Source of the DNA: Catajapyx aquilonaris
Lineage: Eukaryota
Assembly (NCBI GenBank): GCA_000934665.2
Contig: KZ538525.1
Location: 1-64,000 of the forward strand
Direction of reading: 5' to 3'
Length of the DNA stretch: 64,000 nucleotides
The translations under genes were made by a program, and so were the position numbers. Every line of letters begins with the position of its first letter. Position 1 is the first letter of the stretch. The notes under the pieces are model-generated. The model did no database searches. It saw only the letters and a program-made list of their open reading frames with translations, and was not told the DNA's origin. Shown here piece after piece: positions 5,401 to 64,000 of the stretch.

Positions 5401-7612
5401 AAGTGCTGCTAAAGGTATATAGAATCGTTCGCCAGGATTGCCACACTTAGGGACTACGACACCAGCTCCGAAGCGGTAACCCCTCTCAGCTGATAAGGGC
5501 ACGTGGTAAACCTGGTAAGAGGAGTTTCCAGACCTGTATAACACCGTGGTTATTGTAACATCCTGTTTCGTCGCCATGTAGGTGAGAAAAGTCCGGCGAC
5601 CAAAAGTTTTTCATTATTAATCGTCCTATGAGCCATTTCCCCGCCTGTAATACCGGGCTCAGCCCTGGGCCTACTTAATAGAAAGCTAAGCAGTATATAT
5701 TTCCCACAGTGGACGGGAGGAATTTATATTGACTAGGGCAGGCCCTAATTGGAAAACTAGGCAAGGTTTTTGCCCCTTCCGTGGCTCCACCCCCTCGACG
5801 CCCAAAGGGTACAGATCGGCGCGCAATCCTAGCTATGCAACTGGGTCTTCCTCCTCCCCTCCCCCCTCTCCCATAATGTGGGGGGGGGGGGGGCTCTTTT
5901 GCATATTCTGCACGCGGAATGCTTCCCAGAGGAGACTAAATCCGGAGCACACATTATTTTATGAGGACACGTTACCCAGTCGCTCATCTTCCTAATCCAT
6001 GGATTAAGCCATCTGGATCAGAACTTGTCTGGTCCCAAAAGTTGGAAAGCGGGATGACTTTTGAATATTAAATGCATTTTTTTGCATAATATGCGCATGC
6101 GCAGGGTTTTAGCCAATCTGTGGCCGTCTTGCAAACGCTCATGCGCATCTTCCTGCTGTTAGCCAATCCGGGAGCAAAACGCGCAGGATCGCTCTTGAAC
6201 GCTTGGCCTAGAGAGTAAAAACGGGGTCAAAGGCGAGCATGACATATAGTGTTTCTGGCTAATAGGTCGGCCACGCTCTCTTCCGCGGAATGGCGTGGAT
6301 TGTGCCAATTCACAAGAGGAAATTGCCCGGCGGGAATAAAAACACCTGATTCATCTCGCGGCAAAAAGCGAGGGAAGTTCGTAGCTTTTGCTGATAAGAA
6401 ACATAACCACACGCAAAGTGTATACGCAACACACGATTCTGTGATGTCACACATGTGGCATATACGTCCACGCAGGCCGGGCAGTGTTGCCAAATAAATG
6501 ACACCGTGAAGTGTCACGTATTGGGGGGGACAATATTGCCGAACCTTTTTCCCACAAATGGGCCAGACCCTTCCCATTTGAGGCACTTATTTCCTCGTTT
6601 AAAATTGACAAGATAGGGTGGGGTGGTTGGGTGGAAACAGTAGATCGATGTTTAAATGTGGCACTGCGTGTTGCACAAACCTTAATGTCAGTTTGCGACG
6701 CAGGTACAGAGGAAATAGGATACCAATTATCTGTATTGTGTCGAGGTTAACCACATGAGTGTTTTTTTGGGGGCACACCCCACGAAAAAAAAATTGGGTG
6801 CCCTACATTCCACCTCAGACCATGTATCAATGTCGACTTTAATCTCCATACTTGTGTAAACAGAACTTGAACTGAATTTTTTAAGCGCCACTCGTCTTTA
6901 TACCCGCTTCAATAAATCATTGGATAGGGGGGGGAAATGGGGGGCATATCGAGCATGGGCCCTGCTAAATATTGAAGTTTTAGTGCCAGAAACATGTCGT
7001 GGAGTGATGCCTATCGTATGAGGCGGTGCAGTGTGCAAGGCGCATGTAAGTGGTAGTAAAAAGGAGCTGTACTTTTAAAATTACAGGAGCTCTAGGCATG
7101 CATTACCTTTATTTTTTGATTAGATCGCGAGGCACGCACTTTGCCTACCCTATAGTTATCATACAGTATATGTGAGATGTTACAAATATTTGGTTGCACG
7201 AAGTGGGCAATTGACACATCTGACCCAGTTATTTTACATTATCACAGATTGTCATACGCCAGGAGTCAAGAATAGAAATGGTTGGTATTGTTAAGTTTCC
7301 TGAGAGAAAAATGGGGGGGGGGGGGGGGNTTTTCCTTCCTTTTCCTTCTGGTGCAGCCAGCTCCTTCCCATTAGTCCATTACCTTAACACGGCCACAGAC
7401 AGGGCTCGCTAATAAATTGATGACAGCAACACGCCGCCTTAGGCGCTCCAGATACTTCATATATCGATTCTTTTCTCCCTGCCCTGCCTTCCCTTTTCTC
7501 TCACACCATAGTGACGAACTATACATGCCGAAACTTGGCAAAAACTGTGCATGCTACCATATTTCTCACATATATGGCGAATCTACATATTTCTGCCGCT
7601 TTCAGGTATCGG

Positions 7613-8990: not shown

Positions 8991-11412
8991 AAATTCATTT
9001 ATAGTAGTGAATCCTTCGCCAATACGGTTCAAGCACCAAATTGTTTATGTAGCACCATATTTCTCACATAGTTGGCGCATATAGTCCCTCTCGGTACACT
9101 ACTGTCAAAGTCAAGCGGGAAAACGTGGTACTACATGCCCCCAGTTGTTGACTCACCCGGACAGGCAGAGTCACAGACTCAAGCCAATTCTATGTGTATA
9201 AGATTGAGTTTGTGAGGATGAAGTTAACCAGTTTGAATAAGAAAAAGCAATGATTTTGACAGTGGCAGATTCCAACTGGGGGGGGGGGGNGGGGTAATGA
9301 ACAATCAGTAACTTCTTCTCTTGGTCCGTGAATTTGAGCCTTGTGTTGTCCAGTAATTTTGTTGCGCAGTGAGACATTATTTATTCAAACGTCAGATATT
9401 GCTGGCTTGGCAAGGCTTTTTTTTACATTTAAATATTCATGATTTCTGGGATTTCAAGAAGCGGAGTAAAGAAGAAATTGGGTGTCATCACATGCAAGGC
9501 GCTATAAAGTTGTGTGAAAACCACTCTTTATTATTAAGTTATAATCAGCAGTAAAATAGCTTAAATTAAAATCAGGTTAATTATGTATGCAGTAATTTAT
9601 TTAAAGGCGCAGGTTGTGCATGACCTGTCACTATTTTTTTGACGGATATGACTGGGTCATAGCATGCTCCTCATGTACAGCACATTGCACATTATTTATG
9701 ACAATATTATGATGGATTACGTGACACCTGTCGCCTTCATTTTTTGGAGGTGCAAATACCAGGGGTCGAATCTTACATTTTTGCAGACAAATTTGCAGAC
9801 TTTCATCTGGAGTGCAAATTACTTGGAGTTCTTAATTTTTTTAAAATTATTTGGTTTAGCCTTGTTAAAAATCAGTAAGAACTTTGCACTTCAAGGCTCA
9901 ATTTGTAGTGCAGATAACAAATCTGCGCACATTTGCATCCGAATATTTTGACTCCTTGAAATACTATAGGCAAATAATTCCAATGCACTCAATTTAAGTA
10001 CCGTACTGAACTTTTTTATGTGTGTGCGTGTTTCAATGAGCTCTGCTAGTTACTGCTAAGTTAGCAGTGTCTATAGCAGTGGGACGAAAAAATTCGACCC
10101 CTACTTTTTTGTGTGTGTCTCAATCACAAACCTTTTGTACTAACTTCTCTGATTGACTCAAATTAGAGTGGAACCCTACTCAGACCCAGTCAATCCCTCA
10201 TTACTTCACTTCATTACCGTAATTGGGGGGGGTCTGCGAATTTTTTTTATAGTTCTATAGGGATGAGTCGCGGATTAGATATTTTTTGCTATTGCAATAT
10301 ATGAAATGATAGTATTTTTTTTCGTCTTTCGCAATAATAATGATTTTGAGGGTAAGGGGGCAATGAAGATACGTAAAGACGGAGGGGGTGTATTGAAGAA
10401 GAGTGGGGCAGGTTGCAAAATGTTGGCGAATGCGCTTTTGCAAATTGGCTCGGAGACGACGGGGGCCTGAAGAGGCGGTGGGGGGACTCACCATGGGGGT
10501 TGCTTAGCAACGTCAACTCGACGAGGAGTGTGTCCCACCACCCACCCACCCCCGCTCAATATTGAATGGAGGCTATGGGGGTAGGGGCTTGGATGCTTGA
10601 ACCTTCAAGTCTATAGTAAGATAGACCTAGATAAGCAACCCCCAAAAAAGAAGGCTCCCCCCCGGAAGCAAGAGGGTTCTGATAATGCCTCAAAAATGAT
10701 GTGTCTATCGTTGGATGTGACAAGTTGTGGAGGAGGGGGGGGGGGATTGCAGTCGTCCGCTATGACATCGGGGATGATAGTCTATCGATAGATTGCGAGG
10801 TTGGACAATTTCAGATGATTCGGTCGTTGGCGGATCTGCGTGTCCAACTTCCTCATCAAACCCGGAAACATCCTCCCCCCTTTCCCATTTTGCTCTTCTT
10901 CCATCCCCCATGGAGCCAAATGCAATAGATTAAAGGTAAAGGCTTCTTCGGGGCTGACACAAATGTTAAGTGCCGGAGCAGCCTCTGCGCGATTACATGA
11001 TTGGTCCGAGTTTTATTGGGACTTTGGGGGAGGGTCGAAGAAAAGGGCATTGTATATATAGAGAGAAAAAGGGGCATGTTACTGAGGGTTGGGAAAAAAG
11101 GAGGACCCAGTGACAAAAAGAGAGGCTGCGGCCGCTTCGCTTAATGAAAACATTGCTAATTCATAGCCTACGGAAATAAAATGTTGAACTTGAGGGAATC
11201 TTCTCTCTCTTTTTTGTGTGTGTGTGCCCCTAGAATCCCCAACTGATTCTTGGTGTAATCGACATCGGTTGGTGGTGGGGGGGTGGGTGGGGCTGGAAAA
11301 TAATTCAGCAAGTGGCAATCAGTCGGATTGAGGAACTGGCTAGTTTTTTTTTCTGGGGAGGAGTCGATCGAAAGTTCTCCGTTTTAATTCCCTCTGTTTG
11401 TCTTCTCTCCAG

Positions 11413-51647
<40,235 letters not shown>

Positions 51648-57559: not shown

Positions 57560-57680
57560 TGCACTATCTCAGCACTTTATCTATAGGGAGCTCCCTGAAG
57601 GCCAAAGTCCTGAGGACACTACACACACACACACATACTGGAGAAATTTATAAAAGAGTTGGCGTGTGCGATTAGTACTG
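57560..57680 (+). promoter_or_regulatory. Putative upstream MTP promoter (TATA, Inr-like, GATA and HNF4/DR1-like motifs)
   Basis: TATAAAAG 57649-57656; TTAGT 57672-57676; minus-strand WGATAR at 57564 and 57577; AGGCCAAAGTCCT 57599-57611; about 100 bp upstream of a signal-peptide exon. Confidence 0.55.
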
Positions 57681-57749
57681 GCCTGTGGGGGGTCAACTCC
57701 TGGTCACTTGAGTCGTTTGCTTCGTTCAGGATTCTTTGTGGTAACAGTC

Positions 57750-57795
57750 ATGGATTGGAAGTGGACAGTGTCATTCCTCTTCTTCGCTGTATTTG
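57750..57795 (+). CDS. Mtp: MTP upstream first coding exon (signal peptide 1)
   Basis: gtcATGG..TTT G|gtaagc; MDWKWTVSFLFFAVF; phase 1. Confidence 0.72.
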
Positions 57796-60700
57796 GTAAG
57801 CTTTTTTTTTTTTGGAAGATGTTTTTTTGGTGAAAGCGTGTGTTAGGTTGAATGAAACGTTTTGCATGTTCAGAAAATGTGATAACTTTAAAACGTGCCA
57901 GATTTTTGCAATGGATGTGTTTTCGCGTCCAGAAATAGTCTGGAAAGCATTTAACGTTGCACAGTTGCGTCAGCCTGATAATACTCCAAAGGTCGTGGAA
58001 AAAAAAGCTTATTACCCAATTTACTCAGTGTCAGAAATATTAATTTAAAGACGACAAAATTAATGTGCTCCTTCAGAAGCAAAAAAAAAACAGATCAAAC
58101 TCCAAAGGTTGTGTATAAAAGCTTATTAGCCAGTTGCCTCAGTGTCAGAAATATTAATTGAAAGGCGACAAAATTAATGTGCTCCTTCAGAAGCAAATAA
58201 TGATTACAAGAAGGCAATGAACTGCAATGTGTCAACGTACCTGTTGTTTGATTAGTAAGAGGTCATGTCCTGTTTATCAGTGGGCACGTAATGACCGTAA
58301 TAGTTGTTAAACGATTACAAAAATCAAAGAGTGTTCGATTTAACAATGTTAGACATGGTAATACACTATGTATAACTAATTAAAAATTGAGATATCTATC
58401 ATTATGGGTTGAAAATTTTAAAGTTAATATCACGACTGCAACAAATCAAAATTTTGACCCAATTTTTTCGCCATGATAGATTGTGTGACTTGAAATTATT
58501 TCAAGGCTTGTTACATTTTTCTGCATGCTCCACAAACATTAGCTGCAAAAAAAAATAATCAGTTATTTCACACACGTGCCGTGAAAAATCCGCCCTCAAA
58601 TTAAACACAACATCTCCGAACTAAATGCCAAGGAAACATGTCCATTTAATTAGTGACGCCAGCTAGTAAATTCCACTTCATTTTCTTTCCCCCCTTCGAC
58701 TCGTCTTAGGTTCACTTTGCCATCAAGCTCCAGGTGAGTTTATAACAATTAAATTATTGCAATAATAATAAAAATGCATGCGCATGGACTTCACATAAAA
58801 CATTTATAAGTACTTGCCATTAAAGATGAATTAGTAGCAGATAGGTACAGGGTGAATCAAAACAATTTTTGCTAGATATTTTGTCTGGATTCTCTTGCGG
58901 AATATTTTGTCGAAGTGAAACTAATTTTGCAATCATTTTTTTAAATGTACTGTTCGAGACATTATAGAGAGTGACCGAAGAATGTGGCAACCGAGCCATC
59001 AATTACCACACACAGTACGAGATAGTACCGTATGAGGAACTCTGCTCAAGACCAAAGAGCTATTTTTATCCTCGCCAGCAAATTGCCTCAATACCATATA
59101 GGAAAAACGATAGCACTTTGTTACATGACCTTCGTTAGTCGAGGGAATGAAATATTGATTCACTAATGATATACATTGTGAAGAGTATCCAGAGTTCAAT
59201 GTTGCGTAGCTTCTTTTTTTTTTTTTTGCATGTAAACAACTTAACGGGAGATGGTGTGTTGAGCACGTTACGACTTCATGTTTTAAAAAGATTTGCATCA
59301 GCCATCAGCAGCATCGGTAGCACTTTCGAACACGTATGAGGCAATAGCACATATCCTGCAAGACCAGTTACAAAACGAAAGCAAAGTCTTGAAGGAAAAA
59401 ATAAATAAATAAATTCAGATCTCAATTGGCGATTTTTTTTCTCACCAAGCTGCTTATCATTATGCATTTTAAAATCAAAATATTATAGCTACTAATATTA
59501 TGTTGCTTTTCAACTGCTCATGTTTTAGGCGGAAAAAAATCTGAATAAATTCAGAGCCCCAATTTTTTTGCCAATATGCTTTTAGCTGCAAATAGATTAG
59601 TTTATCTGTTTCACAACTTCTGAAAACATTATCAAAAAAAATCGTTCCCATCAGCAAAATTGTGAACAGCTCGTATGATTTTGAGACATATTTTTGGCAC
59701 AAATTTTTTTGCGGATTTTTAGTCACACTGTGGTCACCTGCGCTATTATGTGGGCAAAGGATGTGGGACAAATTGCGATCCGTCACGCCCTACTCGCATG
59801 AAAAGAACCGAAACATACTTGGGGGGGGGGGGGGGGGGGGGGGGGGTGGAATACCACCATTNCCCCTTGCACAGCTCAAGCTAACGGGGTTTGTGTTTTG
59901 GAAAAAAGAGTCTCGAGGTATGGGATAACGGTACGAGAGACTCTGAGTGTAGAAGAAGCGGACGGTAATAGCAATGGTCCAATGCCCTGGACTCCAGTGT
60001 GAGTGTATGCGCCTGAACTAGGAGGAAGGTGATTGCTTCTTGGAATTAACTGTGAAGGCCAGTTGGTCACTTGCTGTAGGTCAGGATTTTGTGCTTCTGT
60101 TTGTCCGGACAGTGTTGCCTAAGTGGTTACGACTTCCGCTGCAATATTTGGGATTCCCCCTCACAAATTCCAGAGACCAGTAAGGAATTTTCCATTTGAG
60201 AAGACGAGTGACCTTCCTTCATGTTTGCTAGGTAATCGACCTTCCTCCTGACCTTGACAAGCAGGTAAAAGTTAGGGGGGGAACCCTCAGCACAAGAGAT
60301 TACATTTCCCTAGCCCTGCCCCTCATGCAGACAGTCAGTGTGTGAGGAGCTGGTGTGTGTCAGTGTGTGGTGAGAAACCGCAGCATGTGGACAGTGCTTT
60401 TGGTGACACTGCTGGTGGTGCGGTGTGACTCTTTTGTGCTTTTGTCACACGCAGCCAGCACCAGGACCTATGAGTTGGGTACTTCCTATTCGTACGAGTA
60501 TGTGACTGAAGTTCTGCTCAACGAGGTGACAGGACAACAACCGGCGTCTACTGTCGGATACCAGGTGTCGGCGGATGTACAGGTCACACCGGTATGGCAG
60601 AACGAAGCCGAAAAACTTATGCAAATCAAGGTACGTTCCGTATGACTTCCAAGTTTTATCTGGTGTCGAACTTTGGTCCCGGAGACGAAGGTCCGTTCGC

Positions 60701-63700
60701 ACGTAGATAAAAAGGAAGTGACTTTGGTCCGTTGCACATGGTTAGTGATAAACCTCTACACGTTTTAGCACTAACCACAAGTCGCCAAAAGTAAAATTTG
60801 TCGTTAATACCTGCTTATACAATCAGATCATATATGAAGGACGTGGTTGTTGCGTAATTGCTACATGAAATAAAATAATGAGAGTATAGGAAGTAACGAA
60901 ACTGGTTATATTACGCAATAATCGAGCAAAACACAAATTGTGTCCTTCATATCTTCCGCATTACTTCAACAAAATGATCTGAAAATATTGAGCAATTTGG
61001 ATCTTGTACAGTGCGAAATTAGTATTTGCGTACAATCATGCATGTAAATAATGTGCACATTGCAGTTTGTAAGCACAAAGCAATGCTGACTTGACCATCT
61101 GACTGGGCAAGGTCACACGAGTTGAATTATTGAATGAATCAAGAATGATTGTTCTCAATTGGTGCGTCCCCCAGTCCTCGGTGTTAATGCACTTTTGTCA
61201 CACTTGGTGTGCATCACTTTCTACTGACCATATTTTTCAAAAAAAAATATTTGAGACAAATTTGCTCAAGTTTCTTCTCCATAAATTGATTTGTGAAAGG
61301 TTCAAATAATTGCTGAAAATTTCTGGGAGTGTTGTACAGTACATTCAGGCAACGTCGCAGAGACATTCAAAATATAGGTAAAGGCAGCGCAAAACAACCG
61401 CTCAGCCGAATAATGCGGTGACCTTGACCCTTGAAGGAAGCTTCTCTAGCGGAAAAAAGAGCCCAAGAGTGACGGTCAAAAGAAGAATGTATGTTGAAAC
61501 GAGGCCATGGTCACTCCATTTATCTGAAAAACATTTTTTCAAAAAATAAATAAATAAATAAATAAATTTTCTGTCAAGGGTGAGAATTATTTAAATGCAT
61601 GGTAATCACTTCCTTTCACTTATGCAGAGTCACCCAAACTCGTTTAGCACCTTATAACATGTACGGTTGTTTTTCCAGTCGCTGGTTTAATACCAAGTGA
61701 GTGTGAATTATTCTCGTTAACATTAAGCATAAATAATAATGACTACATGTTATGTCTTTAAATTTTGAGTAGTTCCCGCATTGCGCGCGGCGGCCATCTT
61801 GGAATCGGAAATTTCCGATTCCAAGATGGCCGTCGCGCGCAATTGGAACTTGTTAATCTGCAATTAATTGCTATTAAATTTAATTGAAATTGACATTATT
61901 TTTGCACACACTTTTCACTTTGCTAAAATTCAGCAAAAAATTTTTCTTTCTCAGCTTGTTTCGCCTAAGCTTCACATAAGGTCTCGCAAGGCCCCGTCGC
62001 CAGAGGGCTTCCTGAGTCACAGCTCCCGATTGGACAGCTCCGAGAATGACCCCGTTTACGTCATCTGGAATTCCGGGAGGGTCAGCGGCCTGCTTGTCTC
62101 CAAAGGAGAGTCCGAGTCGCTGCTCAATCTCAAGAGAGGTGTGGCTGGAATATTCCAGGTAATTGTCTCATATATAGAATTGGCTTGAGTTCGGTTTTGT
62201 CCGGGGTGAGTCATCATCTAGGTGCATGTAGTGTGGCAGTAGTGTGCAGATGCGCCATCTATGTGAGGGGTATGGTACTACCTGAACAGTCTCGGGCAGT
62301 GTTGCCAATTGTTAGCAAAAGGTTCGATATAAGTGAATTTTTTACGAGCTCAACCGAATGCGCACCCACACTCGCGCAAGTCCATGGTTCCGACAACAAT
62401 GTTGCCAGAGTTACTCATCGTGAGCCAAATTACACATTGGTAGCCTCCAAAGAGTTCTGCTATACATGCAGTAGCCTACATACTTGTAATATGAGAACTC
62501 TTTGGTAGTGTGTAAGCCAGCTTCTAAGAGTCTTGCAATTTGGCAACGTCGCAAAAGCCGGCCATATTGTAACCCCCTCAAGTGTAGTGTTGGAAAGAAT
62601 TTGAGCGAGCTGTATTGTGATCATTTAAAAAATATGTAACCTAAAACCTAATATGACTTTGTTGTTGACCAGTTTCAGGACAGGAGTTCGGAGGTGGAGG
62701 AATCGGGAGTTACTGGAGTGTGTCGAGTGACGTACAGGACCAACGACGGAAGACATGTGACCAAGGAGGTCAACCAGTGCCAAAATGCTGAGCAGCTAGT
62801 TTCATATACGCATAACAACCCGGTATAAATTCTGACGTTTACATATTTTTAAAAAATATATAAATTAATATAAATAATGAATATTTGACCCCTCAGGTTT
62901 TGGGATCAAGTGTGGAGTCTACGTACAAGTCTGAGTACTCGTTGTCAAGGGAGGAGAGTGTGATTGCAAAGGCGGAAGTGGAAGAGACCCATGTTGTTCG
63001 AGTATCGATGAAGAAAGACTCGGGCAATCTGGTCAGTTCACGCCAATCAATAAAACTGACAGGTAATACATCTTTTACAATTTGGGGGGGGGGGGGGATT
63101 TGTATTCTGGTAATAAATCAACAATCACAAAATAATTGCAGGTACGAGTACATCGAAGGAGAAGCTGCAGGCCAGTACACTGACCGCAGCAGTACAGGAG
63201 TTGTCAAAAAAATATAAGGTCGAGTTGGTCCAAGTGACGTTAGAAAGTTCGCCAGAAACTCACACGTGCACTGAAAATTGTAAAAATGTAAGTACAGCAG
63301 AGCATGATGTGATAAAGAGACGTGTTTTCTCTTGCTCTGTTGATGCCACGATTTTGATCAAAATTTCATTTTTCCAGTTTGCTAATCTAGTCGAAGAACT
63401 GAAGGACGTTCTGCTGGCCAAACACATGGCGACTGTCAAAATGGCCTCAGCTCATGCCAAGCTGGTCCAGAAGCTAAGGACCACCCCTAAAAGTGCGATA
63501 GTGGAAGTTCTGAAGAGCAAGAAGTACAAGAAGCAGCTGTAAGTACTCCTGGCGATGAAACTAACTGACAAAATATTGGTTAATAACAATGATTCCCTAT
63601 AAGCCCACAGATACTCGACGCCATCGCAACCGCGCAGACTGTCGATTCACACAATGCTGTCAAGGAAATACTGGACTTCAAGAAAGCAGAGAACATAGAA

Positions 63701-64000
63701 CTACCTGAGCGTTATCTTCTTGCGCTGTCGTTAGCGTCACATCCGCCTGAGGAGGTCGTTAGAGGTACGGCAACAATGGATAAGTTTGAATCAAATGAAT
63801 TGATGGGATCAAAAATTTCAGATTTGATGGAAATTAGCAAGAAGAAGATATCGAACCAGAAGCTGAAGGAAACATTGGTGTTGACCCTTGGAGCTTTTGC
63901 GAAAACACTCAGCCGCAACTCACCGAAGGTTAGTGTTGTTTACGTACTCCAGACATAACTTGGCTGATGTTTTGACATTTCTGCAGCTAGTGGATGAGAT
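57750..64000 (+). CDS. Mtp: Microsomal triglyceride transfer protein large subunit (LLTP / Vitellogenin_N family), multi-exon, 3' incomplete
   Basis: Exons 57750-57795, 58710-58733, 60455-60630 (or 60385-60630), 61955-62158, 62673-62822, 62897-63062, 63142-63287, 63378-63538, 63604-63764, 63822-63928, 63987->64000 join in frame. Motifs: YELGTSYSYEY, NLKRGVAGIFQ, EESGVTGVCRVTY. The segment LPQILDAIATAQTVDSHNAVKEILDFK..ERYLLALSLASHP matches recalled human MTP LPQLVDAVTSAQT..ERFLYACGFASHP. Confidence 0.9.
58002..58197. repeat. Local direct duplication (about 80-bp block, about 115-bp period)
   Basis: ctcagtgtcagaaatattaatt..cgacaaaattaatgtgctccttcagaagcaaa occurs twice. Confidence 0.85.
58710..58733 (+). 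CDS. Mtp: MTP 24-nt mini-exon
   Basis: Pyrimidine tract..cttag|GTTCACTTTGCCATCAAGCTCCAG|gtgagt; GSLCHQAP; phase 1-1. Confidence 0.7.
60385..60630 (+). CDS. Mtp: MTP exon with own ATG/signal peptide 2 and an internal acceptor (exon start 60455)
   Basis: MWTVLLVTLLVVRCDSFVLLSHA|ASTRTYELGTSYSYEYVTEVLLNE..KLMQIK|gtacgt. Confidence 0.88.
61780..61843. repeat. 64-bp loopless palindrome (1 mismatch)
   Basis: attgcgcgcggcggccatcttggaatcggaaa|tttccgattccaagatggccgtcgcgcgcaat. Confidence 0.92.
61955..62158 (+). CDS. Mtp: MTP exon
   Basis: tctcag|LVSPKLHIRSRK..NLKRGVAGIFQ|gtaatt; 204 nt. Confidence 0.92.
62200..62630. mobile_element. Dispersed repeat copy in an MTP intron
   Basis: Homology blocks with 1417-1480, 19898-20010 and 8745-8990. 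Confidence 0.78.
62673..62822 (+). CDS. Mtp: MTP exon
   Basis: gaccag|FQDRSSEVEESGVTGVCRVTY..HNNP|gtataa; an in-frame alternative acceptor lies 6 nt downstream. Confidence 0.88.
62897..63062 (+). CDS. Mtp: MTP exon
   Basis: cctcag|VLGSSVESTYKSEY..SRQSIKLT G|gtaata. Confidence 0.9.
63142..63287 (+). CDS. Mtp: MTP exon
   Basis: ttgcag|GT ACG..TCTENCKN|gtaagt. Confidence 0.88.
63378..63538 (+). CDS. Mtp: MTP exon
   Basis: tttccag|FANLVEELKD..KKYKKQ CT|gtaagt. Confidence 0.9.
63604..63764 (+). CDS. Mtp: MTP exon (alpha-helical domain)
   Basis: ctataag|C CCA CAG ATA..; LPQILDAIATAQT..SHPPEEVVR G|gtacgg; phase requires the AAG acceptor. Confidence 0.9.
63822..63928 (+). CDS. Mtp: MTP exon
   Basis: tttcag|DLMEISKKKISNQKLKETLVLTLGAFAKTLSRNSPK|gttagt. 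Confidence 0.88.
63987..64000 (+). CDS. Mtp: MTP exon start, truncated by window end
   Basis: tttctgcag|CTA GTG GAT GAG AT. Confidence 0.75.

Follow-up and report, generated by a model that had tools for sequence, protein, structure and literature searches.

Candidate alternative N-termini, one overlapping a splice acceptor, at the 5' end of a microsomal triglyceride transfer protein gene of Catajapyx aquilonaris

Results

A 5' end with three probable N-termini

We analyzed the 5' end of a gene encoding microsomal triglyceride transfer protein (MTP) in a 64,000-nucleotide stretch of Catajapyx aquilonaris DNA (assembly GCA_000934665.2, contig KZ538525.1, positions 1 to 64,000, forward strand; hereafter the window). 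Comparison with other arthropods indicates that the locus is probably one conserved MTP gene with three N-termini, sharing the three-way 5' architecture seen in mud crab complementary DNAs (cDNAs). A distal first exon (57750-57795) behind a TATA-like box would be joined, in phase 1, to the common exon that begins at 60455. This joining could be direct or could take in a 24-nt cassette micro-exon (58710-58733), which would add GSLCHQAP at the C-terminal end of the signal peptide. A proximal first exon would begin inside the same intron, with translation running from an ATG at 60385 straight through the acceptor, and all forms would lead into the same MTP body from ASTRTYELG onward. By homology, the arrangement is conserved rather than independent; it is real, though not new. 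MTP is required for lipoprotein and yolk-lipid loading, and its knock-down reportedly lowers larval survival in salmon lice.

Identity of the gene

As judged by homology, the window carries an MTP large-subunit gene of pancrustacean type, of which it includes the 5' part (Table 1). Its spliced product forms a 426-residue open frame that is 38-39% identical to arthropod MTPs from Notodromas monacha and Ischnura elegans and to the transcript-derived protein P0049 (E 3e-88 to 6e-91), as measured across 411-448 aligned columns covering the N-sheet and helical domain. Frog MTP aligned at 28% identity (E 2e-30), with the N-sheet cysteines matched. In Pfam scans run on single exons only, Vitellogenin_N (PF01347) scored 25.9 bits on the open reading frame (ORF) at 61868-62185, above its cut-off of 24, and 19.4 bits, under that cut-off, on the ORF at 63593-63958. 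These scans covered 68 of the 188 stop-to-stop ORFs of at least 75 codons, and Pkinase, CaMKII_AD and Vitellogenin_N were the only families found among the 68.

An exhaustive HMMER search with exons 7-8 yielded 91 relatives, of which we inspected the N-termini of the full-length proteins and of their cluster mates. A profile search with 11 full-length MTPs returned six proteins. When the first common exon (60455-60630) served as query in a word-indexed protein search, none of the 59 candidates was scored. All proteins recovered by these searches were only distantly related to the window MTP, with no close relative among them; among short matches, the best was with a protein of the ostracod Darwinula, at 57% across 55 residues.

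Table 1. Features of the MTP gene and its 5' region in the window (a slash marks an exon boundary)
Feature	Position	Strand	Detail
Candidate TATA box TATAAAAG	57649..57656	+	101 nt upstream of distal ATG
Distal first coding exon	57750..57795	+	46 nt, ATG at 57750, 15 codons + 1 nt
24-nt micro-exon	58710..58733	+	(G)SLCHQAP; flanks ...ctcgtcttag/ and /gtgagt
GC-richer unique block	59870..60384	+	candidate proximal promoter or 5' untranslated region (UTR)
Proximal leader MWTVLLVTLLVVRCDSFVLLSHA	60385..60454	+	in-frame ATG 60385, reads through acceptor
First exon common to all routes	60455..60630	+	ASTRTYELG...LMQIK, phase-1 entry
Further MTP coding exons 1-4	61955-62158, 62679-62822, 62897-63062, 63142-63287	+	
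Further MTP coding exons 5-7	63378-63538, 63604-63764, 63822-63928	+	
Last MTP exon in window	63987 to window end (64000)	+	gene continues past window

The distal route and its cassette micro-exon

The distal exon encodes MDWKWTVSFLFFAVF followed by the G of the next codon and ends at the donor TTTG/gtaagc, while the acceptor ...ttttgtcacacgcag/ (...tcacacgcag/) stands directly before 60455. With the micro-exon included, the route reads MDWKWTVSFLFFAVF-GSLCHQAP-ASTRTYELG. Both junctions flanking the micro-exon are in phase 1 with a shared base G, and skipping it produces ...AVF-ASTRTYELG with the frame intact. According to a heuristic assessment, the micro-exon would give the predicted signal peptide a different c-region and a different likely cleavage site.

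This layout recurs in distant relatives (Table 2). In the RefSeq models of a damselfly (Ischnura) and a spider (Stegodyphus), the micro-exon is an optional cassette of eight to nine residues. The residues at the joints of these isoform pairs (F-A and I-V when it is skipped, F-G...P-A and I-G...P-V when it is included) are those expected from phase-1 junctions like the window's. Derived from the relatives, the word C[HQ][QVA]AP has a single match in the 127,996 six-frame residues of the window, and this lies at the micro-exon. On these comparisons, it is very probable that the distal route is real and that the 24-nt exon is a cassette. Because the exon is frame-neutral, and optional in the damselfly and spider models, three N-termini are possible rather than two. 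The original prediction of two thus held insofar as both leaders are homologous to those of arthropod MTPs, but left out the form in which the 24-nt exon is skipped.

Table 2. Distal N-termini of the window and of relatives around the micro-exon
Protein	Exon 1 end	Micro-exon	Common exon	Remark
Window	FFAVF	GSLCHQAP	ASTRTYELG	
P0049	LAIF	GSNCHQAP	ATTRLHYEVG	transcript-derived protein
P0105	LILAVF	CSLCQQAP	ATKTWQYELG	transcript-derived protein
P0104, P0095	LILAVF	no micro-exon	SSKSWQYELG	relatives of P0105
Ischnura X1	LLAVF	GSSGQLAP	ASSTRQYDAG	
Ischnura X2	LLAVF	no micro-exon	ASSTRQYDAG	
Stegodyphus X1	FSVI	GSSNSLPAP	VSTLQYETG	
Stegodyphus X2	FSVI	no micro-exon	VSTLQYETG	

Isoform pairs in which the N-terminus is the sole difference were seen in four RefSeq species, namely Ischnura (P0024/P0094), Stegodyphus (P0041/P0117), Nilaparvata (P0107/P0109) and Centruroides (P0019/P0112). 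The X2 models of Nilaparvata (MAPAIAGH...) and Centruroides (MWSVSLWQCLVYSYEVG) seemingly lack a normal hydrophobic leader.

Upstream of the distal exon, the word TATAAAAG occurs in four copies on the + strand of the 64-kb window and is for this reason weak evidence of a TATA box. There is no ATG between 57675 and the distal ATG at 57750. The first intron of the distal route also holds a tandem duplication of ~110 bp (57977-58086 and 58093-58200, 87% identical).

The proximal leader overlaps the acceptor

The proximal route reads MWTVLLVTLLVVRCDSFVLLSHA-ASTRTYELG. Since its exon continues straight through the acceptor used by the distal exons, the last seven codons of the leader (FVLLSHA) are on double duty, serving also as the pyrimidine tract and AG of that acceptor. 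Such a double use had been predicted for this leader and is borne out in the window sequence. The predicted exons, splice sites and start codons are likewise all present, and both 23-residue leaders translate exactly as quoted.

The end of the leader is shared with other arthropods. From five relatives alone we defined the motif F[VI]L[LIF]S[SH], which among 118 proteins is found in these five other arthropod MTP N-termini, always within residues 20-29 and nowhere else. The window reads CDSFVLLSHAAS, to be compared with ...CRAFILLSHSSS and ...CHAFILLSHSAS in two paralogues of the ostracod Notodromas, CYGFVLISSASA in the beetle Holotrichia, CYGFVLISSPAM in the stick insect Timema and SDGFVLFSSPPA in isoform X1 of the planthopper Nilaparvata. 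Within the six-frame translation of the window the motif matches once, as FVLLSH at 60433, and it was present in none of 5706 control acceptor read-throughs. Being shared with relatives and absent from generic T-rich acceptor tracts, it points to the proximal leader as a conserved coding element. By homology, then, both leaders are conserved coding sequence of arthropod MTPs.

The two Notodromas monacha paralogues (P0043 and P0106) are 69% identical and carry a FILLSH leader each. P0106 reads ...LFSPLLCHA-FILLSHS, with a micro-exon-like LCH directly before the motif.

The stretch tggacagtg, which the original prediction had noted in both leaders, is indeed common to them and in fact extends to the 10-mer GTGGACAGTG, which occurs only twice in the 64 kb with both strands counted, once per leader. 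When the two 70-nt leaders were shuffled 3000 times, a common word of at least 10 appeared in 27 cases, and taken alone the shared 10-mer supports a duplication only weakly. Extended DNA similarity of the two leader regions was ruled out, as 48 of 300 shuffles of the ~270-nt contexts reached the observed local score.

Sequence upstream of the proximal start codon

GC content is 0.49 in the 515 nt before the proximal ATG and 0.47 in the 190 nt before the distal ATG, versus 0.35 in the introns. Upstream of ATG 60385, the frame is closed by a stop at 60343, and further ATGs (uATGs) begin at 60221 and 60325. We infer that the proximal form may be driven by a dedicated promoter and not be a product of intron retention.

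Three other readings of this region were discarded. The block at 59870-60384 was rejected as a repeat or transposon, given that it has no second copy in the window. TCAGTG, found at 60335 and 60360, was dropped as a core-promoter element, the word occurring 16 times in the window. The distal exons could also have been no more than 5' UTR, joined to an AG at 60383, but the tract there is purine/GT-rich and by inspection the distal frame would stop within a few codons, which ruled this out.

TGACCTT half-sites cluster at 60209-60257, ~130-175 nt upstream of the proximal ATG. The longer word TGACCTTGA at 60249, present in two copies in the window, is the reverse complement of TCAAGGTCA, known as an extended half-site for nuclear receptors.

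Chance levels and alternative explanations

Scored with a position weight matrix, the two donors of the distal route fall at the 98.0th (exon 1) and 99.97th (micro-exon) percentile among the 3631 GT sites of the window, and the two acceptors at the 99.1st (micro-exon) and 96.4th (60455) percentile among its 3391 AG sites. All four score at least as high as the eight downstream introns of the same gene. All three N-termini have uncharged hydrophobic cores (15, 14 and 12 residues) and several -3/-1 sites by a heuristic assessment only.

Several observations weigh against three expressed forms. The matrix is a rough one. Of 360 control combinations of window and phase, 20 contained an upstream ATG-exon path that equalled the observed one in site quality and hydrophobicity, and a hydrophobic ATG leader arose in 10 of 666 read-throughs (strong acceptor by phase). 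Chance levels from sequence are thus not negligible, so that the case rests on comparative evidence rather than on signals alone; the window sequence by itself separates the arrangement from chance only moderately. The proximal leader lacks a charged n-region and is interrupted by R13 and D15. All five motif carriers, which are the relatives of known source with this type of leader, are genome-annotation models, and these could share an artefact in which an in-frame ATG before the acceptor is picked where small exons further upstream go undetected. The residues at the X1/X2 joint of Nilaparvata (P versus A) are incompatible with AG read-through in any phase; the motif there seems to sit in a separate exon, and its doubling as an acceptor would not be universal. 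The authors of the crab study predicted their MTP-C to be without a signal peptide (PMC8416765). Finally, the intron that separates the micro-exon from the common exon contains a poly-G run (59821-59846) and an N (59862), and assembly quality is low at that spot.

One alternative is that the distal route alone is used, with or without the micro-exon, and that the frame from ATG 60385 is unexpressed intron, either left over from an ancestral proximal leader or arising as a side effect of the T-rich tract. The distal route is indeed the one found in the damselfly and spider isoform pairs and in the transcript-derived proteins, and the chance rate of hydrophobic ATG frames running into strong acceptors, like the uncharged n-region, fits an unused frame. 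A generic acceptor would not, however, be expected to produce so specific a motif, as the control read-throughs show. Moreover, 8 of 12 residues are kept relative to Notodromas in a segment chosen by eye, whereas the mature proteins are 38% identical, and the ATG, the frame and the 12-residue hydrophobic core are intact. The crab counterpart is, in addition, the main embryonic transcript (PMC8416765). We therefore consider an unused frame unlikely.

A single promoter could also supply both leaders, with the proximal one translated from distal-promoter transcripts that retain the second intron, as described for LsMTP-B of the salmon louse. No core-promoter element could be made out before 60385, and the sole TATA-like word precedes the distal exon. 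Yet a retained-intron messenger would place the distal ATG and ~1.7 kb of AT-rich intron with many uATGs before ATG 60385, the 515 nt preceding this ATG have a composition unlike that of the remaining intron, and the louse also has an LsMTP-C that lacks exon 1 (PMC5538283); together these make a single promoter improbable. An assembly misjoin, or two MTP paralogues with one leader each, would be suggested by the poly-G run and N described above and by the two paralogues of Notodromas. But the exons are on the same strand, in the correct order and at a plausible distance, and both exons end in a phase-1 G that suits the acceptor. True gaps in the window consist of several Ns in a row, and it has other places where a single N stands next to a G run. 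With regard to paralogues, the three crab cDNAs share 2711 identical nt and hence derive from one gene (PMC8416765). Neither a misjoin nor a pair of paralogues is, in our view, at all probable.

Apart from the run near the micro-exon, long G runs followed by a single N were seen at 1523-1543, 7313-7329 and 9278-9290, which resembles a recurring sequencing or assembly artefact.

Neighboring features

Exons of a CaMKII gene lie at 36514-36900 and 50003-50341 on the + strand (Pkinase, E 2.6e-10; CaMKII association domain, E 7.6e-11). Because CaMKII is upstream of MTP on the same strand, the putative distal MTP promoter falls within the intergenic space between the two. Further downstream, the 57-nt intron at 63765-63821 is stop-free in frame (ORF 63593-63958 is open); being a multiple of three without an in-frame stop, it would on retention add 19 residues and keep the frame.

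Discussion

Implications of the dual leader

The preferred explanation for this locus, one conserved MTP gene with alternative N-termini, implies that all three forms would be made in Catajapyx aquilonaris, and by analogy with crab and louse they may differ in tissue or stage of use. An 8-residue cassette in the signal-peptide region and a second leader that itself forms an acceptor allow knock-downs of single variants, and reporter tests, to be designed easily. The locus also calls for caution with automatic arthropod MTP gene models, which give only one or two of the alternative N-termini.

It is conceivable, though for now tentative, that the dual leader and cassette micro-exon form an ancient arthropod module, with the micro-exon shared with spiders and the FVLLS-type leader with ostracods, decapods and insects. 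Short leader segments, chosen by eye, are conserved at 12 of 15 and 8 of 12 residues, compared with ~38-39% identity for the mature protein. On this reading, the leaders would carry sequence-specific information beyond generic targeting to the endoplasmic reticulum (ER), for example for the choice between an ER-lumen and a lipid-droplet or cytosolic pool, or for regulated splicing. It would further suggest exonisation as the origin of the proximal leader, with the tail of the intron becoming coding behind a copied exon 1 and micro-exon, an idea for which we compared WTV...C.. of the window with the LFSPLLCHA-FILLSHS of Notodromas.

Comparison with known systems

Alternative MTP N-termini of this kind are already known as crab and louse cDNAs and in RefSeq models. 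We found no literature pairing microsomal triglyceride transfer protein with 'microexon' (unhyphenated spelling only), and no paper listed for Nilaparvata was, judged by its title, on MTP isoforms. The suggestion that the Catajapyx gene is an independent arthropod version does not stand, since the same three-way 5' end has been cloned in mud crab by RACE (rapid amplification of cDNA ends; PMC8416765), the louse has an alternative start codon inside intron 1 (PMC5538283), and both leader types recur across arthropods.

The vertebrate genes are the more distant parallel. As the original prediction stated, mouse Mttp has alternative-promoter isoforms; mouse MTP-A and MTP-B, like human MTP-A, -B and -C, use alternative first exons with separate promoter regions, and the two mature mouse proteins are nearly identical (PMC4891672). 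In contrast to the window, the alternative vertebrate exon lies 2.7-10.5 kb upstream, no leader is known to overlap an acceptor, and human MTP-B yields no protein (PMC4891672).

Among arthropods, the micro-exon has its counterpart in Ischnura elegans (XP_046406129/30) and Stegodyphus (XP_035206917/18), where a cassette of eight or nine residues occupies the same place and phase as the 24-nt exon of the window. Unlike the window, these clusters contain no FVLLS-type isoform, and they consist of computed models rather than cloned cDNAs. The proximal leader has a parallel in Lepeophtheirus salmonis (salmon louse), in which the start codon of LsMTP-B/C lies in the LsMTP-A intron, directly upstream of the common exon (PMC5538283). 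Two protein isoforms with different signal peptides result, and expression varies by tissue and stage (PMC5538283). The louse thus resembles the window in having an intronic start codon that adjoins the common exon and supplies a second leader, but differs in its six exons, in isoforms of 827 and 819 aa and in having no reported micro-exon (PMC5538283).

Both elements appear to come together in the mud crab Scylla paramamosain, from which RACE clones of MTP-A (881 aa), MTP-B (889 aa) and MTP-C (919 aa) with 866 residues in common have been described (PMC8416765). By subtraction, the unique N-termini comprise 15, 23 and 53 residues, respectively. MTP-B equals MTP-A plus 24 nt at the 5' end of the ORF (PMC8416765), and the 15 and 23 unique residues of these two forms equal the 15 codons of the window's distal exon and the 23 obtained with the micro-exon. 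With the reading frames assumed, the MTP-B-specific primers encode GTLCQQ and SVNLCH in one frame, and the sense strand of the MTP-C-specific RACE primer encodes AFVLLSSY. The authors report that the three MTP types are widespread in decapods and that their expression is stage-specific and differential (PMC8416765). The window would be like the crab in offering three 5' variants of one gene that differ solely at the N-terminus. They differ in that MTP-C has 53 unique residues, whereas the proximal frame of the window allows 23 unless a further exon joins, and in that the crab paper presents cDNAs without gene structure, so that it does not report a leader overlapping an acceptor (PMC8416765). 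What the Catajapyx locus adds to the crab system is exon-intron anatomy for its three cDNA forms, in which leader codons double as an acceptor, and reach, the micro-exon recurring as far away as spiders and the FVLLS-type leader in a range from ostracods through to insects.

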